DNA of 55,171 nucleotides, from IMG/VR virus record IMGVR_UViG_3300012971_000890; one strand, 5' to 3'. The position numbers and the translations under genes were made by a program. The stretch comes from a virus. Below are positions 24,721 through 52,676 of this stretch, in pieces; position 1 is the stretch's first letter, and every line of letters starts with the position of its first letter. The notes under the pieces were generated by a model. That model saw only the letters and a program-made list of their open reading frames with translations. It had not been told where the DNA came from and did no database searches.

Positions 24721-24730
24721 TTTCTGCTCC

Positions 24731-25516: not shown

Positions 25517-25545
25517 ATTCTACAGACGGATTTTCCGGTTGTAAA
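25517..25545 (-). promoter_or_regulatory. phage promoter, CTTTACAAC-N17-TAGAAT
   Basis: About 270 nt upstream of the macro-domain gene. Confidence 0.6.
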
Positions 25546-25551
25546 GCAAAG

Positions 25552-26380: not shown

Positions 26381-26421
26381 GGGAACCTCCTCGCCTATAG
26401 TACGTCGAGAAGGGCCAATTG

Positions 26422-27396
26422 TTAAGCCCAGCGCCCGTCATTTTTGTCGCGCTCGCGGACGATGGGGCGGTCCTGGTTCCAGTGTTCCGGCAAAAACTGC
26501 GGGTCCATCGTCTCCAAGAAATGCCCCCGCCACATCTTCACAAAGCTCTCCAGGTCCAGGTACGTTTCGCTGATCTTGGCGACGATGGTTTCCCCGTGCC
26601 GGGCGAAGTCCTCGGTCTGGATCATCGACTCCATCGCATCGGCCCGCTCCATGTCTTCCTCGGTAATATCATGCTTCTTGTAAAAATCTCGAAGGGTATC
26701 CAACAACTCCTCGCGGCGGGCCGGGGGAATGCCTTTCCAATGTTTGCGGAGGGCGTGGGCGTGCTTTTTTAATTTGATGATGGTTTTGTCGTGATGCCAG
26801 CCCGTGCCCATGAGCGGAATGCCGTACTCAAAGGCCAACTTTTCCTTGAGCCGATTAGCCTCCTCCTCGTACTTGTCATGGCAGGCCACGCACAGGAGGA
26901 GGATGTCATGGTAGCTGTGGTCCTTGACAATGGCAGGAAAATATTTCCGATAACACCAGGGGACGACGTGGTGACGGGTCAATTGCACTTTGCTGCCGCA
27001 GACCACGCACTCGTTGCGCTTGCTGGTGAGATAATAGTCGTCCCCCATGTGACCGGGGCCGTTCGGCTGGAATTTTAACTGGATCGTGGGCGGATCGTCC
27101 TTGACCTTCTCGGCCAGGCCCCGGCTCAAGTACCAGTTGATCTTGTCCTGGTTACAATGGAACATGACCTCGCCCTCTGGGTTGAGGACGTGACAGTTCC
27201 CATACAGTCGTGTCTTTAGCGGTCGCGTCATATTCTGTGCCGTCAGCCCCACTATTCTCGCTCTTATTATAGGGGGAGTTTTGCTCACCCACTCAGCCTG
27301 GCGGAAGTCCTCCACCATTCTGGCGGCGTGGTGCAGCGAGGCACAGAAAAGCACTTTGTTGCTGTCCTTGGCCAAAACTAGCACCGGCGTATTCAC
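26422..27396 (-). CDS. HNH-motif nuclease
   Basis: CVVCGSKVQLTRHHVVPWCY ... LLLCVACHDKY (a C..C/HH/C..C core). Confidence 0.55.
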   Translation of the reverse strand: MNTPVLVLAKDSNKVLFCASLHHAARMVEDFRQAEWVSKTPPIIRARIVGLTAQNMTRPLKTRLYGNCHVLNPEGEVMFHCNQDKINWYLSRGLAEKVKDDPPTIQLKFQPNGPGHMGDDYYLTSKRNECVVCGSKVQLTRHHVVPWCYRKYFPAIVKDHSYHDILLLCVACHDKYEEEANRLKEKLAFEYGIPLMGTGWHHDKTIIKLKKHAHALRKHWKGIPPARREELLDTLRDFYKKHDITEEDMERADAMESMIQTEDFARHGETIVAKISETYLDLESFVKMWRGHFLETMDPQFLPEHWNQDRPIVRERDKNDGRWA

Positions 27397-28394
27397 TAGA
27401 CACTCCGCTTCCGAGCCGCGTTGAGCCAGGACAAGTAGAACGCCTCCATGTGTATGTCAATAAAGGCGTCCTCCGGGCCACCCTCCACCTTCCGGTACGG
27501 CAGGAAGACTTCCTCCCACATTGCCTCACTCTCGTCGCAATAGAGCGCCAGGAAACGTTTGTCCTGGCACTGTTCCATATCGCGCAGGTTGCAAGAACGG
27601 TCGAAGAACTTGATGACCTTGGCTTCCCAAGACACGGTTTTCAAATGGTCGCGGTCCATCTTTTTCCGCTCGGCCCGTGGAAGCTTCCAACCCTTGCTGG
27701 GATTGGTCAACTCCAGCACCAAACGGTACACGTCCTCACCCGCCGTGGAAATAATGGCGGTATAGGGGGTGTTGGGGCAGTCCTCGATAACGTCATGCAG
27801 CCACGCCGCCTTGGCCATTCGGAGCCACTGGCCCATCGGAAGGTCACGTCGCCACCAGTTGATGCGGTCGAACACCTGCGAGGGGTGGGTGATATAGGCC
27901 GCGTCAACGTATTTGCGCTTTTGACCTTCGTGGGCACAGTGCGCCAACAGGATGGTATTCTGGAGGCCCTGATCCATAAACATGCCGTGAACGAACATAC
28001 GGCAGTTCACGCAGGTGCCGTCACCGCTCAGGTTCCAACAGGTGTTGCGCCAGTCATGCGGGCAGTTCAATATCTGTTGGAGACGATTGTGGGCCATTTC
28101 CTCAGCCGCAATCCAGCCGCCGGCTTTTTCACCGCTCGCGCCGCCGGTCACCCCGAACTGGCTACGATGAATGGCGTGGTCGTGCCAGTAATCCAGGGCG
28201 GGCAGATGCAACGGCACCGGGAGGACGACGGCGAAGCTACAACTTGGTTCTTCGGGATTCTCGCTGAGAATATAATCCAAACCGAGCTTGCGATTATACG
28301 AGCAGCGAATATCAGCGTCCTCCGGCCAATCCAATTGGCACTGGTACTTACCACCGGGGGGAGGGCCGTTGACGATGGGCACGAGGGGTTTCAC
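27396..28394 (-). CDS. HD-domain (p)ppGpp hydrolase, SpoT/Mesh1-like small alarmone hydrolase, with Cys-rich N-terminal extension
   Basis: HCAHEGQKRKYVDAAYITHP ... AAWLHDVIEDCPNT ... KFFDRSCNLRDM parallel the SpoT HD-domain motifs. Confidence 0.65.
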   Translation of the reverse strand: MKPLVPIVNGPPPGGKYQCQLDWPEDADIRCSYNRKLGLDYILSENPEEPSCSFAVVLPVPLHLPALDYWHDHAIHRSQFGVTGGASGEKAGGWIAAEEMAHNRLQQILNCPHDWRNTCWNLSGDGTCVNCRMFVHGMFMDQGLQNTILLAHCAHEGQKRKYVDAAYITHPSQVFDRINWWRRDLPMGQWLRMAKAAWLHDVIEDCPNTPYTAIISTAGEDVYRLVLELTNPSKGWKLPRAERKKMDRDHLKTVSWEAKVIKFFDRSCNLRDMEQCQDKRFLALYCDESEAMWEEVFLPYRKVEGGPEDAFIDIHMEAFYLSWLNAARKRSV

Positions 28395-28813
28395 TTGTCC
28401 TCCTTCCAGGTCTTGAGAATGCGCTTGACGGCCTGAACACAGTTGCCAGGCATCAGCACAGTCAACACCGGGACATCAGAAGGCATCCGTAGGGTTGAGT
28501 GGATGTCCACCGCGTAATCGGCGGTAGAGGCAAACGGCGGGCAGGCCAGCACGATATGCGGGGTGTTGGCGGCGACCATACCGGACAGAGCGTTGGACCT
28601 CCCTGCCACCGTCACGAAAATGACCCGGCTCTCGTTTTCAAAACGGTTGAGCAGGTCGAGAAGCTGCCGGGGGTTCTTGTGGGCCGAGCAGACGTGCTTC
28701 TCGACCTCCAGCCAATCGTAGCCGCGACTTCCCACCAGGGCGCTTAGCGGTCCCCACAGTTGTTCGACGTGATCGTTGTCCTTCTCGGAGCCGGCAATGA
28801 TAATGACTTTCAT
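28391..28813 (-). CDS. purE: PurE-like (N5-CAIR mutase / AIR carboxylase family)
   Basis: MKVIIIAGSEKD ... CSAHKNP ... VAGRSNALSGMVAANTPHIVLACPP. Confidence 0.65.
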   Translation of the reverse strand: MKVIIIAGSEKDNDHVEQLWGPLSALVGSRGYDWLEVEKHVCSAHKNPRQLLDLLNRFENESRVIFVTVAGRSNALSGMVAANTPHIVLACPPFASTADYAVDIHSTLRMPSDVPVLTVLMPGNCVQAVKRILKTWKEDK

Positions 28814-29575: not shown

Positions 29576-30547
29576 CTAATCGAGTTTGACATCTCCGGCC
29601 TTCAACCTTTCCCGAATGCGGTCCAGCCCCCGCTCACGCAGTTGCCGAACACGTTCCTTGGTCAGTCCCAAATCCGCACTGATTTCCTTGAGGGTGCGTT
29701 TGCTGCCGTCGCAATCATGCAGCCCAAACCATTCCTCGATGACGAAGCGCTTGCGCTCGTCCTCCTCGCGGTCCAGCAGGCTTAGAAGGCGGGAGACATT
29801 TCTCTGCGTAAGCTCCTTGGCTTCCTCGTGGTCACGGCAATCCTCGTCGCTGGTGTCGAGGCGGGTGTCATATATTCCGTCATCGAAGCCGGTGACGAAC
29901 CGCTCGTTGAAGTTGCGTTCACCGGCGAGATCGCGGGTGAAGTTGTTGAGCAAGACCCAGGTGCCGTAGGTGGAGAATTTGAAACCACGGGTCCAGTCAA
30001 AACAATCCACCGCCTTGACGATATTCAGGTAGGCGTCGGAGAGCAGGTCGTTCACCAGGCTGTGCGCCCGATAAAAGTCCGTGCGTTTGCGAAGCACCTG
30101 AGCGGCCAACCGGGTGTTGGAACACACAAGTTGGTGCTTTACCGTCTCGGCCAGTTTCAAATAGTCCTCCACCTTCTGGAGCTTCTTTTTCATTCGATCA
30201 TATTGATCCCTGGTGGTCGGCTCCTTCTGCCGCAGGGTGCGGGCCAGCCTTTTTGCCCGATACTTGAAATAGTTGAACTTGCGAAACAGGTGATATTCTT
30301 GCTCCTTGTCCAGCAGGGGTTCCTGGTACAATGGAATCAACTCGGTCGGTATATTTTGGCCCTTGAGCTTCGTGACCTCGTTGCGCTTCTCGTTGAATTC
30401 CGCCAGCCGGGGCATGTCGCCAACGATAACGACTTCCTTAGTGCGGTCATCAAAGTCGGGATGGTTGAAAATCTTGAATTTCTTGTTGGTGACGAACGCC
30501 TTGAGTCGTTTGGCCTTCTGCGTAACGTCGTCCTTAACTGCCAGCAT
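29576..30547 (-). CDS. sigma-70 family RNA polymerase sigma factor
   Basis: Region 2 FSTYGTWVLLNNFTRDLA; region 4 HTH KRTLKEISADLGLTKERVRQLRERGLDRIRERL; sits behind the promoter copy with a perfect TATAAT. Confidence 0.75.
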   Translation of the reverse strand: MLAVKDDVTQKAKRLKAFVTNKKFKIFNHPDFDDRTKEVVIVGDMPRLAEFNEKRNEVTKLKGQNIPTELIPLYQEPLLDKEQEYHLFRKFNYFKYRAKRLARTLRQKEPTTRDQYDRMKKKLQKVEDYLKLAETVKHQLVCSNTRLAAQVLRKRTDFYRAHSLVNDLLSDAYLNIVKAVDCFDWTRGFKFSTYGTWVLLNNFTRDLAGERNFNERFVTGFDDGIYDTRLDTSDEDCRDHEEAKELTQRNVSRLLSLLDREEDERKRFVIEEWFGLHDCDGSKRTLKEISADLGLTKERVRQLRERGLDRIRERLKAGDVKLD

Positions 30548-30638: not shown

Positions 30639-31043
30639 TTACGGAAGCGGCACGAGAAATGCGTTAAGTGCCTTGACGATCTTCCGCACCCGATACCCGT
30701 TGGGGTGGTCCACAACAACCGTAATTTCCTTGTCAGCCACCGCCCAGGGTTTGCCGGCGGCGTTTTGTTCGATGATGACGTAGATGCAGGTGTTGTGGGT
30801 GTAGCGGCGGCTGTAACCGTGCGTGTCCCAAAGCTCCTTGTCTTGCGGCGTTTGGAAAATAAAAAACTCGTTGCGATCAAGTGCTTGGCGAAGTCGCCGG
30901 CTGGGAGCGCCGTGGGGCGGGTCGTCGTACTCAACGACCAGCCCTGGCCACTCCCGCCGGCAAATACCGAGGACGCCTTTCTCAACCTGGGCGTAGGTCT
31001 TCCCCTCCGGCCACTCATAAAGCAGATCGTAACCGCCGATCAT
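30639..31043 (-). CDS. hypothetical protein (start MIGGYDLLYE...)
   Basis: ATGA overlap with the histidine-kinase stop at 31040. Confidence 0.4.
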   Translation of the reverse strand: MIGGYDLLYEWPEGKTYAQVEKGVLGICRREWPGLVVEYDDPPHGAPSRRLRQALDRNEFFIFQTPQDKELWDTHGYSRRYTHNTCIYVIIEQNAAGKPWAVADKEITVVVDHPNGYRVRKIVKALNAFLVPLP

Positions 31044-33283
31044 CCGATCTCCACCTTGGAGTGTTTCCTGAACAAGTCCTCCAGCACGCCGGGGATCACC
31101 GGCTTGACGAGATATTCGTGGAAGCCCGCCTCGCTCGCTAACATGCGGTGTTTCTCGGAAGCCAAGCCGGTGACCGCGATAATCACCGCTTGCGGCACCA
31201 GACGGCGCAGTTCTCTGCACACCTTGAAGCCGTCCATGTAGGGCAAGCCGATGTCGAGCAGCACCACGTCGGGATCGAACTCATTGGCACTTTTGATAGC
31301 CGCCGGCCCGTCATTGGCCACCCACACGTCGTAGCCCTGCATACGCAGCATGGCCACGAAGCTGTCCGCCGCGTCCACGTTGTCATCCACCACCAGGATG
31401 CGGCAGTCCTTGCTGGGGGCGGTGGGCACGGTAGCCGGCTCTTCGCGGGTGCGACGTGGAGTGATGGGTTCCGGCATGGCCACCCGCTCCTCGCGCCCGT
31501 TGATGACAGGCAGTTTGACGGTGAAGGTGCTGCCAAGGTTCAAACCAGGACTGTGGGCATTGACGCTGCCGGCGTGCATCTCCACGATCTGCTTGACCAG
31601 GCTCAGGCCCACGCCCAACCCGCCCATGCTTCCGGTGACATGGTTCTGGCCGCGCCGTTCCGCCTGAGCGAACAGGTCGAAAACCTTCCCCAGCATTTGC
31701 TCCGAGATGCCGATGCCCGTGTCGGTGATGCTGACGATGGCCTCGCGCTCGTCGCTCTCCATGTCAATGCGAATCTTGCCGCACGCCTCGGTATATTTCG
31801 CGGCATTATTGAGGAGGTTGGTGAAAACCTGCTCCAGACGGGCCAGGTCGCCTTCCACCCACACCGCCATGACCGGGACGTTGATGGTCAGGGCATGATA
31901 ACGCATATCCAGGTTGGGGCGAGACTGCTCGATGGCACGGGCAATCGCCTGCTGGAGTTGGACCGGCTTGCGCTGCAATTGGAGCTTACCCCGGCTGATG
32001 CGAGCAACGTCCAGCAGGTCGTCCAGCAAACGCGAAATGTGCTGGACCTGGCGCTCGATGAGTTGGCGGTGGTCGCGCACCACCGGATCGCAGTCGCCGT
32101 CACGCATCCGCGTCACTTGCAAGCTGGACAGGATGGGTGCCAAGGGGTTGCGCAGTTCGTGGGACAGGATAGCCAGGAACTCGTCCTTGCGGCGGTCGGC
32201 CTCGGAAAGCTCCTCTACCAGTTGGCGGTGTTCGGTCAGGTCGAGGCACAAGGACACCCAGCCGTCCTTGACGGGCGTATAGAGGCCATTCACCCACCGC
32301 TTGCCGATGCCGGGGATGTCCAGTTCGTCCTCGTAGTTGACATGCTCACCGGCAAGGACTTTTTGAAACTTGGGCAGCAACTTGTCGAAGATTTCCTGGC
32401 CGAAGACTTCGATGATGGACTTGCCGATAATGTCCTCGACGGGCCGTTTCAGCCAGCACCCGTAGGGTTTGCTGCACCACAGGACTTTGAAATCACGGCT
32501 GAAGTGGATCACACACGCCGCCATGCCGTCCACGACGGTGTGCAATTGCGCCGTGACCTCGGCCAACTGGTCGGCCTCGTGCTTACGCTCCGTGAAATCC
32601 TGAAGCACCGCGACCCAACCCTCCTTGGTGGGGGTGTACCGGCCCACCACCCAGCGCGGGCCGATGTTGGCGATGTTAATTTCCTGCTCGTATTCGACCT
32701 GCTCCCCGTGGATCGCCTTTTCCCAGAGGGGCCGCAGGATATTGAACGCCTCATCTCCGATAATATCACGGATCGGGCGACCGATAACCTCCTCCGGGGA
32801 CTTCCGCAGCCAATCGCAATACGGCTTGCTGGCCCAGAGGTATTTGTAGTCCCGGTCCAGGTGGCAGACGGCTGCGGCCATGCCGTCCACTACGCTGTGC
32901 AATTGGGTCGTCACACGCGCCAGACGTTCTTCGTGTTTTTTTCGCTCGGTGATGTCGCGGACGACCGCCACAAATCCCATCTCGCAGGGCGAAATCGTCA
33001 TCTCGATGGGAAACTCCTCGCCGTTGAGGCGCTTCGCCCGTGTCTCCACGAGAGAGCCTATCATCGGCCCCCGCCCCGTGGCCTTGTAAGTGTCCAGACC
33101 GGCGCGGACCTGCGGCACCATTCGTTCCGGCACGAACAATTCGTGAACGGATTTTCCCACCAGATTATCCGCCGGGCAGCCGAACATTCGTTCCGCCGCC
33201 GGGTTGAACGTGGTGATGGTCAGGTCTTTATCGGTGAGGATGATTGCGTCCTGCGCGGCTTCCAGAACGGCGTTCAGCATCAT
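31040..33283 (-). CDS. hybrid sensor histidine kinase/response regulator with about four PAS domains
   Basis: H-box HELRNPLAPI; N/G boxes (NLLNNAAKYT, DTGIGI, GGLGVGLS); C-terminal receiver domain (ILVVDDN ... LLDIGLP ... LVKP). Confidence 0.85.
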   Translation of the reverse strand: MMLNAVLEAAQDAIILTDKDLTITTFNPAAERMFGCPADNLVGKSVHELFVPERMVPQVRAGLDTYKATGRGPMIGSLVETRAKRLNGEEFPIEMTISPCEMGFVAVVRDITERKKHEERLARVTTQLHSVVDGMAAAVCHLDRDYKYLWASKPYCDWLRKSPEEVIGRPIRDIIGDEAFNILRPLWEKAIHGEQVEYEQEINIANIGPRWVVGRYTPTKEGWVAVLQDFTERKHEADQLAEVTAQLHTVVDGMAACVIHFSRDFKVLWCSKPYGCWLKRPVEDIIGKSIIEVFGQEIFDKLLPKFQKVLAGEHVNYEDELDIPGIGKRWVNGLYTPVKDGWVSLCLDLTEHRQLVEELSEADRRKDEFLAILSHELRNPLAPILSSLQVTRMRDGDCDPVVRDHRQLIERQVQHISRLLDDLLDVARISRGKLQLQRKPVQLQQAIARAIEQSRPNLDMRYHALTINVPVMAVWVEGDLARLEQVFTNLLNNAAKYTEACGKIRIDMESDEREAIVSITDTGIGISEQMLGKVFDLFAQAERRGQNHVTGSMGGLGVGLSLVKQIVEMHAGSVNAHSPGLNLGSTFTVKLPVINGREERVAMPEPITPRRTREEPATVPTAPSKDCRILVVDDNVDAADSFVAMLRMQGYDVWVANDGPAAIKSANEFDPDVVLLDIGLPYMDGFKVCRELRRLVPQAVIIAVTGLASEKHRMLASEAGFHEYLVKPVIPGVLEDLFRKHSKVEIG

Positions 33284-36596: not shown

Positions 36597-37033
36597 TTCT
36601 CACTCCCTCGCAGCTTCAAGATGCTCCCCTCAAAGAACCGGATGATCTCGGCCTCCATCAAATCACGCCAGTAGTCATTGTCCCAATCAATGTCCTTCCA
36701 GACGCGCGGCTCATATTGGTATTCTAGGACGCCGTAATGCCAACCCTCCACATCAAAGTGGAAGACGGTCAGCACGTCGTTATGTTCGAGGCCCTGCTCC
36801 TCCTTGTTGGTAACATAGCGGTCCAGCCCGAAAACGATCTCCTTGGCACCCTTACAGAGCAGGCAGTTCAGTGCAAACTTGATAACGTCGTCGGGGCTGA
36901 TGTCCAGCATCCCGACGTACACCATCTCCCCGCACTCGGTCTGCCAGACGCACTGGTTCGGATATACGCCCTTCTCCTGCAACGCCCGCTCGCACTGCTC
37001 GGTAAAGATGTCAAGGAGATTTTCGTCGCTCAT
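36593..37033 (-). CDS. hypothetical protein
   Basis: 146 aa. Confidence 0.45.
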   Translation of the reverse strand: MSDENLLDIFTEQCERALQEKGVYPNQCVWQTECGEMVYVGMLDISPDDVIKFALNCLLCKGAKEIVFGLDRYVTNKEEQGLEHNDVLTVFHFDVEGWHYGVLEYQYEPRVWKDIDWDNDYWRDLMEAEIIRFFEGSILKLRGSEK

Positions 37034-38136
37034 CTGCGCCCCCTACGACCGCCGCCACACCTGAAGCCTCGCGGCCCGCCATAGTAGGCGGGCATGGAGT
37101 AGTAATACCCAGACGACGGTGGGTAGTAATACGGCGCGGGATAGAAGGCCGGCGAGTACACGGGGGGCGACGAATAGACCGGCGGGGGACTCACGTTCCG
37201 CGTGTCGGGCTGGATGGAAATGACATAAGTGCCGCCGGGGGTACATTCGGTGAGAATAACCTCCGACGAACCCACTACCTGACTCCGCACCGTACCGGCG
37301 GGGACTTCCACCCGCACCGTTTTGCCCGCCTTCACCGGGTACTTCCTGCCGTTGACCACGATGGTCGTGTCATGTTCGATCTTGCTATTCAGGACCAGAG
37401 TGCCGGTTTTCTTGGCCGGGGCGGGTTCGGGCTTGGGTTCCGGCTCCGGCTTGGGTTCTTCGGGTTCCACCGGCTTCTCATTCGGCCTGGGAGTTTTATC
37501 CTCGGTCGAGCGGACCACGATTCGGTAGTTCTCCCCAGCCTTGATAGTCCGGGTAATCTTGTTCGTGATCCCCTCAATCTGGTAGGTAAACTGCCCTGGA
37601 TCAACCTTGAAAGACTTTGTTTCCTGGGCGGGAACCTTGTGCTTCTGGTCATTCAACAACAGGGTCACGTCGTTGGTCCAGGTGTTTTTTACTTCCACCA
37701 CGGTGTCCTTCGCGGCTGGGGCGGGGCCTGGGGCTTGCTCCTTTCCCTGCGCCACGAATACTTCATTGCCAACCTCGCAGCTTTCCTCAACCTGGGTCTT
37801 GCCTTCGCGGCCCGCGAAGGTGTGGTATTCGCGCACGGCGGGCGGACGGGAAACCTTTTGCTTGGCGGATTCCGTGCCCTCGGCGGTCACCGGGTTCGTC
37901 AGAGCTTCTTCGATCCCGTCCACCCGGCGTTTCAGGCTGTCCAGGTCAGTGCGCACGGCCTTGTAGTCGCTGCGCATCTCCTCCAGAATCTTGATGATCT
38001 GGTCGATTTTCTCATCCTTGGTTTCCCCCTTGGGCCGGGACTGCGCTGAGGCGGGCGCAGTCACCGGCATCGTTGGGAGGAATACGAGCGGGAGGGCGAG
38101 TCCCGCGAAGGCGACCAGTCCCATATAGCGTGCCAT
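37030..38136 (-). CDS. secreted repeat protein (signal peptide, two internal beta-rich repeats, Pro-rich linker, Tyr-rich C-terminus)
   Basis: MARYMGLVAFAGLALPLVFLPTMPVTAPASA signal peptide; PEPKPEPEPKPEP linker; YY-rich tail. Confidence 0.5.
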   Translation of the reverse strand: MARYMGLVAFAGLALPLVFLPTMPVTAPASAQSRPKGETKDEKIDQIIKILEEMRSDYKAVRTDLDSLKRRVDGIEEALTNPVTAEGTESAKQKVSRPPAVREYHTFAGREGKTQVEESCEVGNEVFVAQGKEQAPGPAPAAKDTVVEVKNTWTNDVTLLLNDQKHKVPAQETKSFKVDPGQFTYQIEGITNKITRTIKAGENYRIVVRSTEDKTPRPNEKPVEPEEPKPEPEPKPEPAPAKKTGTLVLNSKIEHDTTIVVNGRKYPVKAGKTVRVEVPAGTVRSQVVGSSEVILTECTPGGTYVISIQPDTRNVSPPPVYSSPPVYSPAFYPAPYYYPPSSGYYYSMPAYYGGPRGFRCGGGRRGRR

Positions 38137-38147: not shown

Positions 38148-39440
38148 TTAGGCGGCTTTTACGGGGTACAACTTGGCCTCACCCCGGACCACTTCCGGCG
38201 TGACGACGTACTTGCCTCCCTGGTGTTCCGGCAGTTCGTACATGATGTCGAGCATGATCTCCTCGACCACGCCCCGCAACGCACGGGCACCCGTGTCGCG
38301 CTCGATGGCCCGCTTGGCGACTTCCTTGATGGCATCCGGCGTAAATTCCAGGGTCGCGCCGTCCATCTTGAAAATCTTCATGTACTGCTTGAGTAGGGCG
38401 TCCTTCGGCTCGGTCAGAATCTTGCAGAGGAATTCCTCGTTCAACTCGCTGAGGGTGGTTACGACCGGCAGCCGGCCCACGAACTCCGGGATCATCCCGA
38501 ACTCAATCAGATCGTCGCTGGTCACCTTGCCCATGATGGCGTCGTTCTGCTCTTGCTCAGTGCCCTCGTCACGCGATACGCCGAAGCCGATGCTGCGTCG
38601 GCCCGTCCGGCGAGCGATGATCTCCTTCAGGCCGGTGAAGGTTCCCCCGCAGATGAACAGGATGTTCGTCGTGTCCACCTGGATGTATTGCTGCTCCGGG
38701 TGCTTGCGCCCGCCCTGGGGCGGGACGTTGGCGAGCGTGCCCTCAAGCATCTTCAGGAGAGCCTGTTGCACGCCTTCGCCGGAAACGTCGCGGGTGATGG
38801 AAATATTCTGCGTGGTCTTCCCGATCTTGTCGATCTCGTCAATGTAAATGATGCCGCACTGCGCGGCCTCGATGTTAAAGTCCGCCGAGCGGAGAAGACG
38901 CAGGATCAGGTTTTCCACGTCCTCTCCGACGTAACCGGCCTCGGTTAGCGTGGTGGCGTCCCCAATGGCAAAGGGGACATCCAGTTTCTTGGCCAGGGTG
39001 CGGGCCAGAAGGGTCTTGCCCGACCCGGTGGGACCGACCAGCAGAATGTTGCTCTTGTCGATCACCACGTCCGCCAACGGGTCTTCCTCCTCCTTGTTCT
39101 GGTTGGTGGTGTCCTTCAGACGCTTGTAATGGTTGGCGACGGCGACGGCCAGAATCTTCTTCGCCCGTTCCTGGCCCACAACGTACTGGTCCATGTGGGC
39201 GACCAGTTCCTTGGGCGAAGGGATGTGCTGGGGCAGGTGCTTGTCGATGAGTTCGCGTTTCAGGTTTTGCTTCTTGATGATCTCCTGGCAAATCTCCACG
39301 CAGGTGGGGCAAATGAAGACCTTATCCTCGTCCGGCTTTCTGCCGTTGGCGAGGGCACCTGGCCCCTCAATCAACGGTCCCACAACCTTGTGAGACTGCT
39401 TGCAGAAGTCACAGTGCTGCTCACGCTTTTTCCTCGTCAT
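38148..39440 (-). CDS. clpX: ATP-dependent Clp protease ATP-binding subunit ClpX
   Basis: N-terminal C4 zinc-binding domain; [47 protein letters not shown] is near-identical to the ClpX consensus. Confidence 0.9.
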
Positions 39441-39479
39441 GCTGTCCTCGTTGGGTGTAAAGGATCGCGTTTCCAACCT

Positions 39480-39508
39480 AGTATACTTACCGAGGAGCCG
39501 ACTGTAAA
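39480..39508 (-). promoter_or_regulatory. phage promoter, CTTTACAGT-N17-TATACT
   Basis: Upstream of clpX. Confidence 0.6.
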
Positions 39509-39512
39509 GTGA

Positions 39513-40589
39513 CTACTCGCAAGAACTTGCTGCCTTTTCACGCGCCTCGCTAAGTGCCTGTTTGCAACGCGCCTTAAAGTCTTGATCCGTCATGGCCTCC
39601 ACGATTCGCTCGATCTCCTCGATGGGCTTGTTGGCCTCAACAGCATTCAACACCGCGTCGAGGTCATGGTTTTGCCTCCGCAGGCAGGCCAGTTCCAACC
39701 CGCCAATCTCCGTGGCCACCAGATGGGGGTCGGGGTACGCCCGGCCCAGCACCGCCAGAAGGGGTCCAAAGTCCGCCCCCGGCGTGTTTTTGCAAATTTC
39801 CAGCGTCCGCAGCAGGTTGACGTGGAGGGACGCTTTCGTGGCGGGAACGGCGGCTTCCGCCTCCGCATACCTCCCCAAGCTCGCCAACACAAAGACCTTG
39901 CGCAACCTGCGGAATTCGGCATGATTCTCGACCCGGTTGATCTCAGACTGTGCCAGCAACGCCACCAGGGGCATGATGAGGGCCATCATCCACAGCCCCG
40001 TGGCCAAAGCATACAGGAACAGGAGCAGGCAGGTCACCTGGCCGACCCGCACGGCCCACCAATTGGCCTTCTGGTAGTCCATGAACCGGCCCAAGATGGA
40101 GCGAAAGATGCGGCCTCCGTCCATCGGATAAGCCGGTGCCAAATTGAAAACGAACAGCATGACGTTGATGTAGGCAAACCAGAACGCCACCTGAGCCGCA
40201 ACCATCCAATTCAGTTCGACAAATACCAGCACCAAGCCGCTACACAGTACCGCCAGGACAACATTCACCATCGGCCCCATAACGGTGACGATAAACTCCT
40301 TGCGCGGGTCGTCCGGGCCAATCTCGATGGCGGCAACCCCGCCGATAGGATAAAGGACCACCCGATCCACCTGGATGCCCTGGCTCTTGGCGGCGAGGAT
40401 GTGTCCGTATTCGTGCATTACCACGAACAGGAACACAGCCAGGAACAGCGCGGTGGCCAAGGGGTTAAGGAACAGCATCATCACCATCATCATGACCCAC
40501 GACCAGTGGGCATAAAGGGGCACCCCAAAGTAAGTACCCAGGTGCGGGTTAACTATTTTCTGCAAAAGCTCCGTGCTGTTCATATTCAT
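39513..40589 (-). CDS. site-2 protease family (M50) membrane metalloprotease
   Basis: HEYGH and NLAPAYPMDGGR motifs; several TM segments. Confidence 0.75.
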   Translation of the reverse strand: MNMNSTELLQKIVNPHLGTYFGVPLYAHWSWVMMMVMMLFLNPLATALFLAVFLFVVMHEYGHILAAKSQGIQVDRVVLYPIGGVAAIEIGPDDPRKEFIVTVMGPMVNVVLAVLCSGLVLVFVELNWMVAAQVAFWFAYINVMLFVFNLAPAYPMDGGRIFRSILGRFMDYQKANWWAVRVGQVTCLLLFLYALATGLWMMALIMPLVALLAQSEINRVENHAEFRRLRKVFVLASLGRYAEAEAAVPATKASLHVNLLRTLEICKNTPGADFGPLLAVLGRAYPDPHLVATEIGGLELACLRRQNHDLDAVLNAVEANKPIEEIERIVEAMTDQDFKARCKQALSEAREKAASSCE

Positions 40590-40635: not shown

Positions 40636-41211
40636 TTGAGACTCGACCATATAGCATACCGCGTCCGCGACCGCCACACCACCGCGAAATTCTTTCGGGA
40701 AGCATTCGGCTACAAAGTCCAGACCGAATTTGACATCGACTTCGGCGGCGGCAAGTGTGCCAAGTGCCTCGCCCTGGAGCCGCCGGAGCGTCAAAATGCC
40801 CCCCGACATCTTATCCCCTGGGTGGCCGGGGAAGCAATATACATTCCGTGCCCGGACGGCGGGATGCAGAATGTGGTGCAGGATTACCACCTGGCCCCGG
40901 AGATTTTCGTCTCCGATGGTTCGCCAGGAAGCATTGTGGGGGATTGGGTTGCGGCCCGTGGAGGGGTCGGTGGCATTCACCACCTGGCATATCAGGTCGA
41001 AGATGTGGCGGCAACAATGAAGGAGTGGCGGGACAGAGGCTACGCGGAATTTACATCAGAAGAACCCATGCGATGTCCCGGACTGACCCAGGTGTTTACC
41101 AAACCCTCCTCGCTAACGGGCGTGATTTACGAGTTCATCGAGCGCCAGGAATTCGGCTTCTGCAAAGACAACGTGCGCCAGTTGATGCTCTCGACCCAGG
41201 AGGAAAAATGA
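40636..41211 (+). CDS. VOC/glyoxalase-family protein (TTG start)
   Basis: MRLDHIAYRVRD...FFREAFGY glyoxalase-fold N-terminus; RBS AAGGAG. Confidence 0.6.
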   Translation: MRLDHIAYRVRDRHTTAKFFREAFGYKVQTEFDIDFGGGKCAKCLALEPPERQNAPRHLIPWVAGEAIYIPCPDGGMQNVVQDYHLAPEIFVSDGSPGSIVGDWVAARGGVGGIHHLAYQVEDVAATMKEWRDRGYAEFTSEEPMRCPGLTQVFTKPSSLTGVIYEFIERQEFGFCKDNVRQLMLSTQEEK

Positions 41212-41717
41212 AGATTTGTTCTAAGTGCGGGGCTACCCAAGAAATCGGTAACTTTGCCGTTCGGTCCAAGACTACCGGGCGTCGTCATTCTTGGTGCAAT
41301 GCCTGCCTTAAACAATATAAGGCCGACTACTATGCCAAGCACCAGGATAAATTCCGAGAATACAAAAAGGTGTGGTATCCGGCCAACCAAGACCAGCAGC
41401 GTGCGAAATGCCGCGAGCGGTACGACAAGTGCGACAAGGACCAGCACGCTCAGGTTGTATGGAAAAATAAAATCCTCCGAGAATTTGGTCTTACCGTAGA
41501 GGAATACAACCTTCGACTGACAGAACAAAAAGGGGTGTGCGCCATCTGTGGCAAAGCAGATAGTCAACGGCTCGCTGTTGACCACTGCCATAAAACAGGT
41601 ATGATCCGTGGACTCCTTTGCCGGCGATGCAACGTGGCCATTGGTATCTTCGAGGACGATCCAGAACTGTTGGAAAAAGCCCTTGCGTATCTCAAGTCGG
41701 CTTGTCTTCGGGCGTAA
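41208..41717 (+). CDS. recombination endonuclease VII (T4 Endo VII family)
   Basis: GVCAICGK ... LAVDHCHKTGMIRGLLCRRCNVAIG; ATGA overlap with the VOC gene. Confidence 0.7.
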   Translation: MKICSKCGATQEIGNFAVRSKTTGRRHSWCNACLKQYKADYYAKHQDKFREYKKVWYPANQDQQRAKCRERYDKCDKDQHAQVVWKNKILREFGLTVEEYNLRLTEQKGVCAICGKADSQRLAVDHCHKTGMIRGLLCRRCNVAIGIFEDDPELLEKALAYLKSACLRA

Positions 41718-44207: not shown

Positions 44208-44396
44208 ATGCTCGTGCTATCCAGAAAGAAGGACGAAACCATCATCCTGAAAGGCCCCGACATGCACGAAATCCGAATCACGGTGGTGCGGATCGACAAT
44301 CGCAATAAGGTCCGCCTGGGTATCGAAGCCAATAAGGATGTCACGGTCCTTCGTTCGGAACTTACCAACGGCACCGGCCACGAGGGCGAAGCCTAA
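44208..44396 (+). CDS. csrA: carbon storage regulator CsrA homolog
   Basis: MLVLSRKKDETIIL...VRLGIEANKDVTVLRSEL matches the CsrA fold sequence; RBS AAAGGAAAC. Confidence 0.75.
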   Translation: MLVLSRKKDETIILKGPDMHEIRITVVRIDNRNKVRLGIEANKDVTVLRSELTNGTGHEGEA

Positions 44397-44848
44397 CTGT
44401 ACTCCGGTACATGGAGGGCTTTATTTATCACGCCCACTACGCGGCGATATTCCTGGCTGTTGATGTCCCAAAAATAACGTGCGAAATAGCAGACCGCCTC
44501 CGGGGCGTAGTCCTGCCCCTTATCCCAGCCCGCCGCACGAACCTGCTCGGCCCAGCTTGCGATGTCCTCGTCAGTAACCTGCACCCCAGCATCCCAGGGA
44601 TGCCCCTTGGGCTTGCAAGGTGGCTTTCCTGCGGGGATGACCACCCGCGACCGCCCACTGGTGACCACACTCGGCTGGGGTTCGGGGGCCGGCGGCTCGG
44701 CGGGGGCACCGCCAATAACTCCAGCCGCCGTGGCCGGCGTATCGGCCAGCTTCACCGGCGGCGAGAACTGGTGGCCGCACTCGCATCGCTGCGTCCGCAA
44801 ACCCACCGACTTGTGGCACTTCGGGCATTCCTTCAAACCACGGGGCAT
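44393..44848 (-). CDS. zinc-ribbon hypothetical protein
   Basis: CPKCH ... CECGH near the N-terminus; downstream of a TTTACA promoter copy. Confidence 0.45.
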   Translation of the reverse strand: MPRGLKECPKCHKSVGLRTQRCECGHQFSPPVKLADTPATAAGVIGGAPAEPPAPEPQPSVVTSGRSRVVIPAGKPPCKPKGHPWDAGVQVTDEDIASWAEQVRAAGWDKGQDYAPEAVCYFARYFWDINSQEYRRVVGVINKALHVPEYS

Positions 44849-44870
44849 CGGTCGTCCTCCTCTCGCGCTT

Positions 44871-44899
44871 ATTCTATCGCCCACTTTTCCGGTTGTAAA
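44871..44899 (-). promoter_or_regulatory. phage promoter, CTTTACAAC-N17-TAGAAT
   Basis: Upstream of the 44393..44848 gene. Confidence 0.65.
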
Positions 44900-44913
44900 G
44901 CCGAAATATATGC

Positions 44914-45903
44914 TTAGGAGAGCAGGTCGCTGATCGAGTCCTCCTGGTGGATGCGCCGGATGGCCTGCGCAAACAGATTCGTGGTGTCAATAATCTTCAG
45001 GTTCTTCTGAAGGGCGGGCTGGACGCGAAAGGGTCGGATCGAGTCGGTGATGACCGTGCGTTCGATGCCCGCCAGGTTCTCGTTGGCCCTGCCGACGAAC
45101 AGGCCGTGGGCGGCACAACAGCCCCAAACCTGTCCGCCGTCACGCTCCACCGCTTGCCGGGCCTCCAGCATGGTCTTGGCACTGGCAATCATATCGTCAT
45201 ATATTACCACAAGCTTGCCACGAACATCGCCGCCTATCTTGTGCCCCTTGATGGTCCGTCCCGCGTGTTCCTTATCCAGCACCGCCACTTCGATGTCCAC
45301 CCCTAGAATCTGGCTGAGTTTGTTGCGGAAGTAGCGCGAGCGTGGCCCGCCCCCCGCGTCCGGGGCCAGCACACAGAGCCGCTTGGGGTCGTGGCAGTTC
45401 TCGGCCACATAGCGGGCAATAAGGTTCTTCGCCTCCAGATGGTCGGTGGGGACATCAAACGTACACTGGAAGGCCGCGAGGTTGTGTACATCCATCGTAA
45501 GGATGCGGTCCACCCCCACGCTCTGAAACAGGTACTTGATGTACTTTTGGGTAATAGGGGCACGGCTTTCCGTCTTCCGGTCTTGCCGTCCATAGCAGAG
45601 GTAGGGGACGACCGCAGTGACTCGCCGGGCACTGGCGTCCTTGAGACTGCCGATGAAAAACAGCAGCTTTAGCAGTTTATCGGAAACGGACTCGTGGGTG
45701 CAAGAGTAAAGGGACTGGATTACAAACACGTCCCACCCCCGCACGTTGACGTTGGACCGGAGGTAATACTCCTGGTCATCGAAGCAGGTTTCCTCGTGCC
45801 GGCACAGCGAACCGTCCGTCTCGCACTGGCCCGCCAGGTGGCCGGCGACCTTGGCGGCGAAGTCCTTGCTGGCGTCCAGACCGAAAAGGCGAATCCCGTT
45901 CAT
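44914..45903 (-). CDS. ribose-phosphate pyrophosphokinase homolog (PRPP synthetase / possible ADP-ribose pyrophosphokinase)
   Basis: RVTAVVPYLCYGRQDRK and VVIYDDMIASAKT in Prs positions. Confidence 0.75.
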   Translation of the reverse strand: MNGIRLFGLDASKDFAAKVAGHLAGQCETDGSLCRHEETCFDDQEYYLRSNVNVRGWDVFVIQSLYSCTHESVSDKLLKLLFFIGSLKDASARRVTAVVPYLCYGRQDRKTESRAPITQKYIKYLFQSVGVDRILTMDVHNLAAFQCTFDVPTDHLEAKNLIARYVAENCHDPKRLCVLAPDAGGGPRSRYFRNKLSQILGVDIEVAVLDKEHAGRTIKGHKIGGDVRGKLVVIYDDMIASAKTMLEARQAVERDGGQVWGCCAAHGLFVGRANENLAGIERTVITDSIRPFRVQPALQKNLKIIDTTNLFAQAIRRIHQEDSISDLLS

Positions 45904-46783
45904 CGTTGAACCTGCTCCTTTGCTGCCTCCAGTGTGTTCCGCAGCAGCATGGTCACGGTCATCGGGCCGACCCCGCCCGGCACCGGGCTGATCGCCTCCA
46001 CTATTTTAGACACCGCCGCGAAATCCACGTCCCCTACCAGCTTCTTCCCTCCTAGACGGTTTACCCCCACGTCCACGACCACCTGACCCGCCCGCACCAT
46101 ATCGGCGGTGAGGAATCCCGGAATCCCCACCGCCACCACAATGATGTCGGCGGCGCGGGTTATCTCCTTCAGCAATGCCGGCGGCGTCCGGTTGTGGCAG
46201 ACGGTCACCGTCGCGTTGGCGTACTCGTCGTTGTCCTGTAGCAACATGCTCGACAGGGGCTTGCCCACGACATCACTACGGTTGATAACAACCACCTTCT
46301 TCCCCGCAATCCCGATGCCACTGCGCCGCAGCATCTCCTGAATGCCGTGCGGGGTGCAGGGCTTCAGCCGGGGCCGACCCTGGACCAGCAGGCCGACGTT
46401 TAACGGATTGAAAACGTCCACGTCTTTGTCGGGATTGATGAGGTCGAATATCGTATATTGATTCACCGGGCTGGGGAGCGGCAACTGAACAAGTATCCCG
46501 TGGCACCAGGGTTCCTCATTCAAATAACAGAGAATGCCCTCCAGCGTCTTCTGACCCTCCGAGAACCCGATGTACGGCTGGTACAGTTCGCTTCGGATGC
46601 CCACCCGTGCGCAGGCGTCCCGTTTGCGTTGGACATACACCGCGCTGGCCGGGTCGCTGCCCGCCAACAATACCACCAGGCAGGGGGTAACGCCTGTGTC
46701 CGCCTGAAAGTCCTGTACCTCGGCGGCTATTTCTTTCTGAAGTTCTTGCGCTATTTTCGACCCATCAATAATGTGCGCCACCC
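45900..46783 (-). CDS. folD: bifunctional methylene-THF dehydrogenase / methenyl-THF cyclohydrolase FolD
   Basis: Collinear FolD motifs; GTG start after AGGAGGGA. Confidence 0.85.
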
Positions 46784-46792
46784 GCGTCCCTC

Positions 46793-47092
46793 CTAGAGCG
46801 TGCCGTGGCAGGCGAGGCCCGGCCACTGAATCTTGACGGCGTTCGGGTCCGCAGGCTTCTCCTGCCAGCCCAGCGCCCTGATGAAACACAGTTTGCAGAA
46901 GGCGACCTCGCGGATTAAGTCGGTCATGGCCATGACGGACTCCCGGTCGATGGCCGAGAAGTTGTCCCCGATCAGGGGCAGCCGCTCGTTCAGACTAGCC
47001 CGGTAAATATTGCCCTGGACGATCACGCCGCATTCGGGCTTCAAAATCGGCTGGTCGCAACTTTCGCAGACCAGCACCTTGACCGTTTTCAA
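46793..47092 (-). CDS. hypothetical Cys-containing protein
   Basis: 99 aa. Confidence 0.4.
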   Translation of the reverse strand: MKTVKVLVCESCDQPILKPECGVIVQGNIYRASLNERLPLIGDNFSAIDRESVMAMTDLIREVAFCKLCFIRALGWQEKPADPNAVKIQWPGLACHGTL

Positions 47093-47616
47093 AATATCAC
47101 CTTTCCTTCCCCAATTTCCTGCCAGGAAACCGGGTGAATGGCCTCAAAGCCTTCCTCCAGGGAAGGCGCGATGAACAGTGCGTTGTGCGTGTTGGCCACC
47201 TTGAGCCAGTAGGCGTAGTCGTGGCCACGCAGGTCGTTGTCGGCCCGCCGCCGGGCGTGAACGCTCGGCCCCTCATTCTTAAAAAGCAACGCCTCGCAGG
47301 GCACATCGAAGCTGCGGGCCAGGGCCAGCCAGCGTTTCCGCCCGGTGACGCTGACGTTGAGGCCCCGGTCCACGATGACGGTGCGGCCCAGAGCCAGGGC
47401 GGTGCCGATGACTTGGTTCTCCACCGTCTTATAAAGCACCTTCAGGGCCTTGTCATATAAAGTGTAGTCGTCGCCGTGCAGCATGTTGACGATGGCATCG
47501 TCGTTGACGCACAGTGCGCCTGCGCGGGCCGCGTTCTTGCAGTAGGTGGACTTCCCCGACGCGATCATTCCGACCAGGACTTGCAGTTTCGGCATCATGC
47601 CCGACCTCCGTGCCAT
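47089..47616 (-). CDS. P-loop kinase (polynucleotide kinase-like)
   Basis: Walker A GMIASGKST near the N-terminus; 175 aa. Confidence 0.55.
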   Translation of the reverse strand: MARRSGMMPKLQVLVGMIASGKSTYCKNAARAGALCVNDDAIVNMLHGDDYTLYDKALKVLYKTVENQVIGTALALGRTVIVDRGLNVSVTGRKRWLALARSFDVPCEALLFKNEGPSVHARRRADNDLRGHDYAYWLKVANTHNALFIAPSLEEGFEAIHPVSWQEIGEGKVIF

Positions 47617-50606: not shown

Positions 50607-50822
50607 TCACCGCTCCTCGCGGTGGACCACGATCTCGTTCTGAAGCTGGATCGGGCAGTTCTTATTTCGCAGAACCGCCATCGCCCGCTCGGTGGCGATC
50701 TGCTTCAGGTAGTAGCTCCGCACCGTGCCACGCAACACGATGGCGGTGGGCGTCTCGATCACGACGATGCCGAGCCGGCCAACATGACAATCCTGGGCGA
50801 TGGCGTCCTTGATGCTACCCAG
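50607..50822 (-). CDS. small BON-like domain protein (GTG start overlapping the SprT stop)
   Basis: GIVVIETPTAIVLRGTVRSYYLKQIATERA resembles BON. Confidence 0.3.
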   Translation of the reverse strand: MGSIKDAIAQDCHVGRLGIVVIETPTAIVLRGTVRSYYLKQIATERAMAVLRNKNCPIQLQNEIVVHREER

Positions 50823-51489
50823 CACTGGTCTTCTCCGTGACACAGACGAATAGAGAACCACACTGTTCACATCGGATGCGAAGCGGATTGGCTCCGTCCG
50901 GGCGTCGGCCACTGCGGATCGAATTGTGCGGCGGCGGGCACTTGCAGACGTATTTCAAAAAGCACGGCTTGGGGGGACGGGCACGACCGGCCTTGTCCGC
51001 GATATTATTCTTGGCCTCCCGAAATATCTGCTTGTCGATATTGACCTCGTTAAAGGTCTTAACCCGCCTCTGGATGGCCGGCTTCTCCGGCACCCGCACC
51101 AGTTCCCCGTCCACCCCGCCCTTGGGGATATTCGTGCCGGTGATACCCCAGCCCTGGGTCTTGTGCTTCTTGACCACCAGGCCCACTTCCAGGGCCTTGA
51201 CCAAGAACTTCTTGTTATGGTACTGGTTGGCGGTGCAATCGACCACCCCTTCCTGGTGGTTGCCAATATGGATCATCTCGTGGAGCAGGACCAGGAGAAC
51301 GTCGTGGTAGTCGATGTTGATGAACTCCACCCCGATCACCAAGTTTTCCGACTGGTAACGGATGGAGAGCTTCTTCTTGGTGTCGATGACCACGGGCGGC
51401 ATTTTCAAGGTGCCGCCGAAAAGTTTAATGTTGAGGGTGGAGAAGGCCCGCTCCAACTCCCCGACGATAGGCGGCTTTGCCTTGTGCAT
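50815..51489 (-). CDS. SprT-like zinc metalloprotease with C-terminal zinc ribbon
   Basis: LLHEMIH (HExxH) in SprT context; CKCPPPH ... CEQCG. Confidence 0.6.
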   Translation of the reverse strand: MHKAKPPIVGELERAFSTLNIKLFGGTLKMPPVVIDTKKKLSIRYQSENLVIGVEFINIDYHDVLLVLLHEMIHIGNHQEGVVDCTANQYHNKKFLVKALEVGLVVKKHKTQGWGITGTNIPKGGVDGELVRVPEKPAIQRRVKTFNEVNIDKQIFREAKNNIADKAGRARPPKPCFLKYVCKCPPPHNSIRSGRRPDGANPLRIRCEQCGSLFVCVTEKTSAG

Positions 51490-51836: not shown

Positions 51837-52547
51837 TCAAATGGCCTCGTTCATCTTATATTCGCGGAACAAGTCGTCACGGAGATTGACGTGGCTCAGG
51901 TCAACGAACCGGCTGGCCTCCTTCATCAGAATGGAGGAGCAGCCGACGCTGCTGAAAAAAGCGACCTCAACGCTGAGGCCCGTTTCGCTCCGAATGCGCC
52001 GGACGGTACGGGCGTAATCCTCGTCGCCAGCCACCAGGACGAAGGTGTTGTACCGGCCTGCGCGGGACAGAATGGCCATGTCGTAGACGATTTCGCAATC
52101 CAGCCCCTTCTCCACCGGCACCTGTACGGGCGCACCGTTTTCGTTGATGGTCCGCTCGCGCAACGGCAATTCTACCATGTGGTAGCCCAGGTTGGAACCC
52201 AAGAAGTCGTAGAACTTGTTGCGCTTGGCCTGGCGCAGCCGGTCCTCTGTAACAAGGTTGCCCAGGTCGGGAGAACTGTAGTAAAATCGCACGGTAGCTG
52301 TCCGACCGTCAGCCAGCACGTCCCGCAGCTTGATGTAGTCGAGGCGGCGGTTGCCCAGGTTCATGCTTTTCAGCGCGTGGAAAAGGTTGGAGTTGTCGAT
52401 GAACAGGCACACCTTCTCCTGGGAGCGGATCAGGCGGTTCATCTCACTCAGATACTCCACCATGTCCGCCGTCTGCGTGGCAGGGGGCACCGGAAACTCG
52501 ATGGTCCGGTCGTTCCTAACAGGTTCGCCGTTCTTGACTGCGTGCAT
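51837..52547 (-). CDS. NYN/LabA-like (PIN-fold) putative RNase
   Basis: VCLFIDNSNLFHALKS ... FVLVAGDEDYARTVRRIR pattern of PF01936. Confidence 0.6.
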   Translation of the reverse strand: MHAVKNGEPVRNDRTIEFPVPPATQTADMVEYLSEMNRLIRSQEKVCLFIDNSNLFHALKSMNLGNRRLDYIKLRDVLADGRTATVRFYYSSPDLGNLVTEDRLRQAKRNKFYDFLGSNLGYHMVELPLRERTINENGAPVQVPVEKGLDCEIVYDMAILSRAGRYNTFVLVAGDEDYARTVRRIRSETGLSVEVAFFSSVGCSSILMKEASRFVDLSHVNLRDDLFREYKMNEAI

Positions 52548-52628: not shown

Positions 52629-52676
52629 ATGAGGGTTTCCCCGTATACTATGCTTAGGAGGCCCACGAGAGGATAT

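Follow-up and report, generated by a model that had tools for sequence, protein, structure and literature searches.

The virus-derived DNA stretch IMGVR_UViG_3300012971_000890, an IMG/VR record of 55,171 nucleotides that is hereafter called the window in its full length, carries a gene for an M50 site-2 protease (S2P) directly upstream of clpX, the gene for the AAA+ unfoldase ClpX. The window derives from a non-structural part of the genome of a huge tailed phage from tropical forest soil, a member of the LR756511 phage clade. The M50-clpX pair is conserved in the whole clade of these huge phages and is unpaired in the cellular genomes sampled. In the explanation that we favor, clpX belongs to the gene backbone of the clade, many members carry an intact M50 gene upstream of it, and the two enzymes would act sequentially on fragments of membrane proteins. 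We give this explanation an even chance of being correct. The features concerned are as follows.

38148..39440, minus strand: clpX, encoding a 430-residue AAA+ unfoldase whose C4 zinc-binding domain contains a 12-residue insertion
39441..39512, minus strand: spacer of 72 bp between the M50 gene and clpX
39513..40589, minus strand: M50 site-2 protease of 358 residues with a six-helix core of the mjS2P/SpoIVFB type

Predicted architecture of the M50 site-2 protease

The M50 gene product matches the Pfam family PF02163 with 84 bits (cut-off 27). In the PDB, its whole six-helix core aligns with mjS2P (MJ0392; 3B4R) at E = 2e-27, and SpoIVFB from B. subtilis was also matched. These group III enzymes are the best sequence and fold matches of the core and have identical catalytic motifs, which read HEYGH and NLAPAYPMDGG in the window protein. 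The first-pass annotation, which was made from the sequence alone, had described a polytopic M50 protease with HEYGH and LDG motifs. The family, the polytopy (five to six hydrophobic helices are predicted) and HEYGH are borne out, while the second motif reads MDG. An AlphaFold model built with 48 sequences has a pLDDT of 94.3, fits 3B4R with a TM-score of 0.83, and also superposes on the SpoIVFB:pro-sigma-K complex. Across 11 phage M50 proteins with overall identities of 29–58%, His59, Glu60, and His63 are invariant, as are Asn149, Pro152, Pro155, Asp157, Gly158, and Gly159. The retention of the catalytic residues at such identities argues for selection on an active protease. Judged by its sequence and modelled fold, 39513..40589 encodes an intact, minimal site-2 protease of the SpoIVFB/mjS2P type.

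The C-terminal region of about 120 residues (approximately residues 240–357) is all-helical in the model, at a position where cellular relatives mostly carry a CBS domain (PF00571). The group III S2Ps have this CBS domain, whereas the window protein shows no Pfam match to it and has the helical domain instead. No significant structural match was found for the modelled domain, which is confined to five or six close metagenomic relatives and is lacking in the more distant phage copies. The M50 protein also differs from RseP and RasP, the PDZ-bearing group I enzymes, in that Pfam detects no PDZ domain and the RseP model gives only 24.5 bits against a cut-off of 148.

ClpX and its zinc-binding domain

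Over its full length, the ClpX protein scores 590 bits against the NCBIfam equivalog model NF003745 (cut-off 359) and 574 bits against TIGR00382 (cut-off 371), and its alignment with ClpX structures in the PDB covers them from one end to the other (best E = 4e-140). The Walker A and B motifs, the GYVG pore-1 loop, the pore-2 and RKH loops, the arginine finger, and the sensor-II motif are all intact, being identical or conservatively substituted relative to E. coli ClpX. The ClpP-docking IGF loop (SIGFG) is intact as well and, like the other motifs, is kept in all six confirmed M50-linked copies in the ClpX alignment. Because this loop is kept, the use of a ClpP, which had been suggested from the start, appears plausible. 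A GAGGA Shine–Dalgarno sequence 4 nt ahead of the ATG at 39440 supports the assigned start of clpX. The predicted product of 38148..39440 is a bona fide ClpX. The initial description of a near-consensus ClpX with a zinc-binding N-domain was correct as to the protein and the domain, since the C4 cysteines (CDFC...CPTC) are present. The term near-consensus slightly overstates the case, as the protein is 54% identical to E. coli ClpX (66% to Gemmataceae ClpX), and a 12-residue insertion separates its two CxxC pairs. Pfam zf-C4_ClpX matches the protein in two pieces.

The relatives of this ClpX comprise a few close sequences (89%, then 73–75% identical), followed by a plateau at 62–65% that includes Gemmataceae and other Planctomycetota. 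In a neighbor-joining tree (408 columns, 200 bootstraps, taxa from top hits only), the M50-linked and the other insertion-bearing ClpX sequences form one clade with 84% bootstrap support. The phylogeny that the first-pass annotation had called for thus places the phage copies in a clade of their own, which is provisionally the sister of a Planctomycetota clade supported at 100%. The phage clade and the Planctomycetota together are separated with 100% support from the ClpX proteins of Proteobacteria, Firmicutes, phage G, Phosso, and Lak. The spacer between the CxxC pairs measures 24–31 residues in the phage clade and 18–19 residues in canonical ClpX. The insertion of 11–12 residues is common to the phage clade and is absent from every cellular ClpX examined. 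The separate clade and the shared insertion indicate that the ClpX of the phage clade probably stems from a single old acquisition from a Planctomycetota-like ClpX, distinct from the events that brought ClpX into other megaphages. Its zinc domain, which binds substrates and adaptors, would have diverged afterwards, while all features required for unfolding proteins and for docking on a ClpP ring have been retained.

Phage G (gp258), Lak phages, and the Sinorhizobium phages Phosso and AP-J-162, whose genomes exceed 450 kb, likewise encode full-length ClpX proteins with a zinc-binding domain and an IGF or LGF loop. However, the ClpX proteins of phage G, Lak, and Phosso represent a separate acquisition in the tree and lack the zinc-domain insertion of the window clade. 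One further ClpX, protein P0125 on a 1.7-kb ENA contig, is 73% identical to the window ClpX and nearly identical at the IGF loop; its zinc-binding domain is canonical, without the insertion. It may be a recombinant or a chimeric assembly.

Conservation of the M50-clpX pair

In LR756511, clpX is immediately preceded by the gene for an M50 homologue (34% identical), with both genes in the same orientation. The same order is found on the contigs of three further M50 relatives, namely P0003 (58% identical), P0004 (58%, on a 670-kb contig), and P0007 (40%, 158 kb), at the loci of the ClpX relatives P0208 and P0124, and on five IMG/VR contigs, where the M50 copies were located through the ClpX loci. 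Together with the window and LR756511, these amount to 12 distinct M50-clpX loci, with GC contents of 39–59%. In contrast, neither clpX nor clpP lies within 5 kb of the M50 gene at any of the 80 best cellular M50 loci. These loci are the best matches with one representative genome per species, and they are led by Pirellulales and other Planctomycetota.

The backbone of the clade runs in the order ParB-like protein, kinase, FolD, phosphoribosyl pyrophosphate (PRPP) synthase, CsrA, glyoxalase, a variable slot, ClpX, GGACT protein, sigma factor, HD/HNH proteins, and PARP. ClpX is universal in this backbone, and M50 fills the slot in some lineages only. Wherever an M50 gene is present, it sits in this slot immediately ahead of clpX and shares the strand of clpX. 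At the loci L040, L036, and L044, the two genes are still adjacent although hardly any further resemblance to the window, if any, can be detected there. No terminator-like hairpin is present in the 72-bp spacer of the window.

The pair is flanked by the following genes.

40636..41211, plus strand: divergent glyoxalase/VOC-family gene, the conserved upstream neighbor of the M50-clpX slot across the clade
37030..38136, minus strand: 368-residue protein with an N-terminal signal or anchor segment, directly downstream of clpX after an 11-bp gap

The glyoxalase gene belongs to a plus-strand island (40636..41717) that also encodes an endonuclease VII, in an otherwise minus-strand window. Between 40 and 42 kb, the local GC fraction falls to 0.545 and the AT skew changes sign. 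The 368-residue protein contains a coiled-coil-like region, PEPK-type repeats, and a tail rich in Pro, Tyr, and Arg. A family match was sought for it and none was found; it holds its position after clpX only in the closest relatives.

A possible sequential action of the two enzymes

Two regulatory genes lie in the vicinity.

29576..30547, minus strand: phage sigma factor with sigma-70 regions 2 and 4, within the same conserved backbone block
31040..33283, minus strand: PAS-PAS hybrid histidine kinase with a receiver domain, 747 residues, just upstream of the sigma gene

The sigma gene is located 9 kb from the M50-clpX pair. The pairing of the kinase with the sigma factor is kept in relatives, and a virus with its own sensor kinase beside a sigma factor is unusual. 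The small gene upstream of the sigma gene (30639..31043) was considered as an anti-sigma factor and rejected, as its product lacks a hydrophobic segment and is soluble.

In bacteria, cleavage of an anti-sigma factor by an S2P exposes a degron, and ClpXP then degrades the fragment, thereby freeing the sigma factor (PMC10202637). The DegS–RseP–ClpXP pathway of E. coli, which acts on RseA and sigma-E, and the RasP–ClpXP pathway of B. subtilis, which acts on RsiW, employ the same enzyme classes as those encoded in the window, and in the same order, S2P and then ClpX. We infer a comparable functional coupling in the phage. During infection, the M50 protease would cut the transmembrane segment of a membrane-anchored host or phage protein. 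The phage ClpX would then bind the cytoplasmic piece set free by the cut, or different targets selected through its altered N-domain, and would feed them to the host ClpP or to a divergent phage protease with a ClpP fold, or would just unfold them. This sequence of steps would mirror the RseP–ClpXP and RasP–ClpXP routes by which sigma factors are released. Sequential action is the reading best supported, because the 72-bp spacer is free of a hairpin, the sigma factor and the kinase lie in the same block, and both enzymes are intact.

A more specific version, which we put forward only tentatively and consider rather unlikely as it stands, is a two-step phage cassette. The M50 protease would cut a membrane-tethered regulator, for instance an anti-sigma factor of the host or a membrane-bound defense or stress sensor, and the re-tooled ClpX would destroy the fragment through the host ClpP. 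If so, the phage could switch the transcription program of the host or of the phage itself from inside the membrane, and the cassette would be the first virus-encoded pathway leading from regulated intramembrane proteolysis (RIP) to ClpXP.

Several observations weigh against sequential action. Bacterial RIP involves an anti-sigma factor, a site-1 protease, and the adaptor SspB, whereas no substrate, membrane anti-sigma factor, site-1 protease, or SspB-like adaptor was found among the window proteins examined; only four others of these have hydrophobic segments, and none of the four is anti-sigma-like. The first-pass annotation had suggested that the protease could cleave membrane anti-sigma factors and so be linked to the phage sigma factor; no such anti-sigma factor was found near the sigma gene. 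SpoIVFB acts directly on a sigma-factor precursor, but the phage sigma factor has no hydrophobic pro-sequence. Canonical clpP was found neither in the window nor in the complete relative LR756511. ClpX is not dependent on M50, since clpX is kept in lineages where the slot is empty or holds another gene (L033–L035, L037, L038, and L192). The whole region is collinear across the clade, and the M50-clpX adjacency is therefore partly inherited synteny. The spacer contains one sigma-70-like match, TTTACA-17-TATACT, from which clpX may be transcribed separately as well, with the qualification that the match count is not above the shuffled expectation. Finally, the tree is distance-based and drawn from top-hit taxa, which makes the sister placement of the phage ClpX provisional.

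Some of these observations would be expected if M50 and ClpX were independent and were neighbors merely by virtue of a collinear backbone, which we regard as a real possibility, short of probable. ClpX could then be a peptidase-free remodelling or assembly chaperone, serving in the disassembly of replication complexes or in virion assembly, a role that we hold to be possible to the same extent. Equally conceivable on this account, M50 would act on a membrane protein of either the phage or the host and could serve, for instance, to time lysis, to exclude superinfecting phages, or to manipulate envelope stress. The universality of ClpX and the dispensability of M50 in the clade fit such independence, as does the possible internal promoter ahead of clpX. 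Among 80 ClpX loci in IMG/VR, seven have clpP within 10 kb (adjacent in three), five have an adjacent M50 gene, and 68 have neither, so that an orphan clpX is the usual situation in viruses. A translocase or assembly role has been proposed for jumbo-phage ClpX (PMC7824862), and ClpX has been detected in the virions of phage G (PMC12484599). However, mere neighborhood does not readily account for the constant slot and strand of M50, kept also at loci that share little other synteny, and the strict conservation of the IGF loop argues for a peptidase partner over a stand-alone chaperone.

The candidate peptidase partner

The first-pass annotation had noted no clpP in the window, and our search agrees: the best tblastn match to phage G gp257 or Acinetobacter ClpP has an E value of 0.2, compared with at most 1e-125 for the ClpX control. 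Beyond the window, where a search of the rest of the genome had been proposed, the complete relative LR756511 lacks a canonical ClpP and encodes one divergent S14 protein. This 202-residue protein (584579..585187; 45579..46187 in L018) scores 77 bits against the Pfam CLP_protease model and is encoded by a free-standing gene. By eye, a Ser/His/Asp triad is apparently present in its sequence. In PHROG, its matches to head-maturation-protease families (1e-19) outrank that to ATP-dependent protease (4e-10). The neighboring genes encode a CCA-adding enzyme, a DNA methyltransferase, and a polynucleotide kinase and are not virion genes. The protein could be assigned neither to the prohead proteases nor to ClpP.

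An autonomous phage ClpXP, in which the phage ClpX would work with such a divergent ClpP-fold protease encoded elsewhere in the genome rather than hijacking the host ClpP, appears unlikely to us. The full length of the S14 protein, its apparent triad, and the position of its gene outside the virion genes speak for this arrangement, and phage G provides a precedent, as its ClpX gene (gp258) adjoins that for ClpP (gp257). The window clpX instead has M50 upstream and no canonical ClpP, and nothing comparable to the S14 protein is found in the window. Furthermore, the S14 protein is only 24–28% identical to true ClpPs, its gene lies approximately 390 kb from clpX on the linear record, and its best PHROG scores are those of head-maturation proteases.

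The Mpa-like ATPase and the SprT-like zincin

Two other genes of the window had been grouped with clpX and M50 as proteostasis genes in the first-pass annotation. They are listed here together with the gene that overlaps the first of them.

18581..20299, minus strand: ARC/Mpa-like single-ring AAA+ ATPase; public gene calls start at MNEEQ, near 20260
20296..21057, minus strand: 253-residue protein with an acidic linker and a C-terminal AbrB/SpoVT-like motif; overlaps the start of the AAA+ gene by 4 bp
50815..51489, minus strand: SprT-type zincin with LLHEMIH, an invariant downstream His, and a C-terminal C4 zinc ribbon, from a family of proteins of about 215 residues

The AAA+ protein aligns end to end with the proteasome-ATPase model TIGR03689 (pup_AAA), at 316 bits and thus below the cut-off of 505. 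This alignment spans residues 12–549, and the match to Mpa in the PDB begins at residue 191. Mpa and ARC structures are its longest single-domain PDB matches; the higher scores of VAT and p97 come from a single query domain that matches their D1 and D2 alike. Like Mpa/ARC of Actinobacteria, the protein has the same overall length, an alignment running from the N-terminal region through the AAA+ module, and intact Walker A/B motifs and pore loop (KWVG). It differs from them by its sub-threshold score and by the lack of a GQYL/HbYX docking motif, which is absent from the protein itself (ending in ...RPDIAAA) and from 70 relatives with variable ...VEKLxxAK/AA tails. In three genomes, its gene always lies between PARP/WGR on one side and the genes for RNA ligase, NUDIX, and ADP-ribosylglycohydrolase (ARH) on the other, with an AbrB-like protein as another neighbor. 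This is an ADP-ribosylation and RNA-repair block, and no 20S, Pup, Dop, or PafA gene lies near it. Since both the docking motif and proteasome neighbors are lacking, the AAA+ protein is not a proteasome activator. It works like a substrate-threading unfoldase and is not of the Mpa family in a functional sense. The resemblance to ARC/Mpa noted earlier therefore stands as a full-length alignment to TIGR03689, and the association with a proteasome does not.

The 253-residue protein was considered as a partner peptidase or proteasome subunit and dropped: it has no Pfam or PADLOC match, its profile yields weak AbrB-like matches only, and its single-sequence AlphaFold model (pLDDT 43) is unusable. 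In PADLOC, ClpX and the AAA+ protein show generic AAA+ similarity only, and a defense-system reading of the two was rejected for this reason.

The SprT-like protein on its own reaches 18.3 bits against Pfam SprT-like (PF10263), below the cut-off of 25.6. Its family has 72 representatives at E ≤ 1e-30, and 13 of 48 members reach the Pfam model at E ≤ 0.01 (best E 1e-5). The family profile has a sole match in the PDB, the SprT domain of human Spartan (6MDX, E = 1.3e-4), through the LLHEMxH helix. The window protein thus shares the HExxH zincin motif with the Spartan/SprT family, with the match running through the active-site helix, but is remote from it and bears its own C4 zinc ribbon. The SprT-like call is real by virtue of this profile match and is a weaker assignment than first given, owing to the sub-threshold Pfam score. 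SprT-like peptidases are already on record in jumbo phages.

That the AAA+ protein is a proteasome activator and forms one proteostasis system with ClpX, M50, and the SprT-like protein is very improbable, even though its full-length TIGR03689 alignment and its longest single-domain PDB matches would favor such a role. Apart from the score below the family cut-off, the tails without a docking motif, and the neighbors, which are never proteasome or pupylation genes, the AAA+ gene is conserved in the phage clade yet missing from LR756511, which keeps M50-ClpX. Nothing ties the AAA+ gene (18 kb away) or the SprT-like gene (11 kb away) to clpX. The two are separate clade-conserved genes and not parts of one system.

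Phage origin of the window

The window (59% GC) has about 80 closely spaced genes, of which almost all lie on the minus strand; a search for tRNA genes across it found none. Nineteen of its genes are collinear with a 41-kb stretch of the 595-kb genome of LR756511, and 27 have matches genome-wide, despite the contrast in GC content (42% in LR756511). LR756511, deposited as an "uncultured phage", provides the best ClpX match among deposited phages (61%). Its gene products include the large terminase (PHROG E = 1e-41), the portal (1e-72), the baseplate wedge (2e-31), and a tail protein, which mark it as a genuine tailed phage. Hallmark genes for the virion and for packaging are absent from the window itself and present in this collinear complete relative. 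Relatives in IMG/VR are contigs of 235–533 kb, and other public contigs with the same gene blocks measure 346, 670, and 673 kb. The identical ClpX protein, with identical neighbors, occurs on several tropical-forest-soil metagenome contigs of 21–77 kb, one of which is a 76.6-kb ENA contig (ERZ27275469), and a 151-kb contig is also listed with it. An exact-DNA search of IMG/VR for the window contig gave no match. The host is probably a planctomycete, as pointed to by the ClpX sister placement and by the Planctomycetota among the nearest cellular M50 homologues.

The first-pass annotation had spoken of a phage-like element, which the collinearity with LR756511 bears out, and had named bacterial chromosomal DNA with clpX next to clpP, tig, or lon as the refuting case. 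No clpP, tig, or lon gene is present in the window, and this absence, together with the phage synteny, favors the phage. A bacterial chromosome or mis-binned metagenome-assembled genome fragment with a housekeeping clpX, to which the 64–66% identity to the ClpX of Gemmataceae and other Planctomycetota and the lack of virion genes in the window might point, can be dismissed as already refuted by the synteny, and it is further at odds with the true Gemmataceae chromosomal clpX, whose neighbors are pyrH, frr, and typical planctomycete genes, with the one-strand packing and many ORFans, and with the zinc-domain insertion seen in no cellular ClpX examined.

The first 12 kb (1..12033) form a dense run of ORFans, in which none of the ten genes tested has a Pfam match. 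An open reading frame of 682 residues (3266..5314) is without a match in both Pfam and PHROG.

Other genes in the window

A conserved minus-strand block at 14019..28394 combines ADP-ribosylation and RNA-repair genes. Its order is repeated on the 346-kb and 673-kb contigs, where SmpB is present too. The block looks like a counter-defense or RNA-damage-repair region.

14019..15083, minus strand: ADP-ribosylglycohydrolase
15466..16032, minus strand: NUDIX protein
16295..17383, minus strand: T4 Rnl1-type RNA ligase
17523..18185, minus strand: GatB/Yqey-domain protein
21483..23105, minus strand: PARP with WGR
25709..26380, minus strand: second RNA ligase
26422..27396, minus strand: HNH endonuclease
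27396..28394, minus strand: HD phosphohydrolase

A set of genes for nucleotide and one-carbon metabolism, also conserved in the clade, occupies 44208..47616 and 28391..28813.

28391..28813: PurE/AIRC
44208..44396, on the strand opposite to the rest of the set: CsrA homologue
44914..45903: PRPP synthetase
45900..46889: FolD
47089..47616: AAA_33 kinase

Three further genes lie toward the end of the window.

51837..52547: NYN-domain RNase-like protein
52629..53783, plus strand: cytidylyltransferase-like protein
54545..55171: GT2 glycosyltransferase, running past the window end

Implications for huge phages

Phage-borne genes for ClpX, ClpP, ClpS, and SprT-like proteins are already described in the literature. 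Our literature search yielded no description of a site-2 protease encoded by a phage, nor of S2P paired with ClpX, and no paper was found under the accession LR756511. Clp and proteases go unmentioned in the huge-phage paper. Three features appear to be new: the position of M50 directly upstream of clpX at the 12 loci of the clade, set against the absence of clpX within 5 kb of M50 at the 80 cellular loci; a ClpX clade of its own, sister to Planctomycetota, with a zinc-domain insertion and intact pore loops and IGF loop; and a minimal M50 core with a novel helical C-terminal domain replacing CBS or PDZ. To our knowledge, very few planctomycete phages are known, and the ClpX placement and the M50 homologues point to planctomycete hosts for this clade.

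Clp components of phages are known, but their targets are not. The S2P-ClpX pair offers a testable idea in this respect, namely that the targets are fragments released from the membrane. The zinc-domain insertion marks a surface where the choice of substrate or adaptor is probably altered. If the coupling of S2P and ClpX holds true, it would extend regulated intramembrane proteolysis to viruses.

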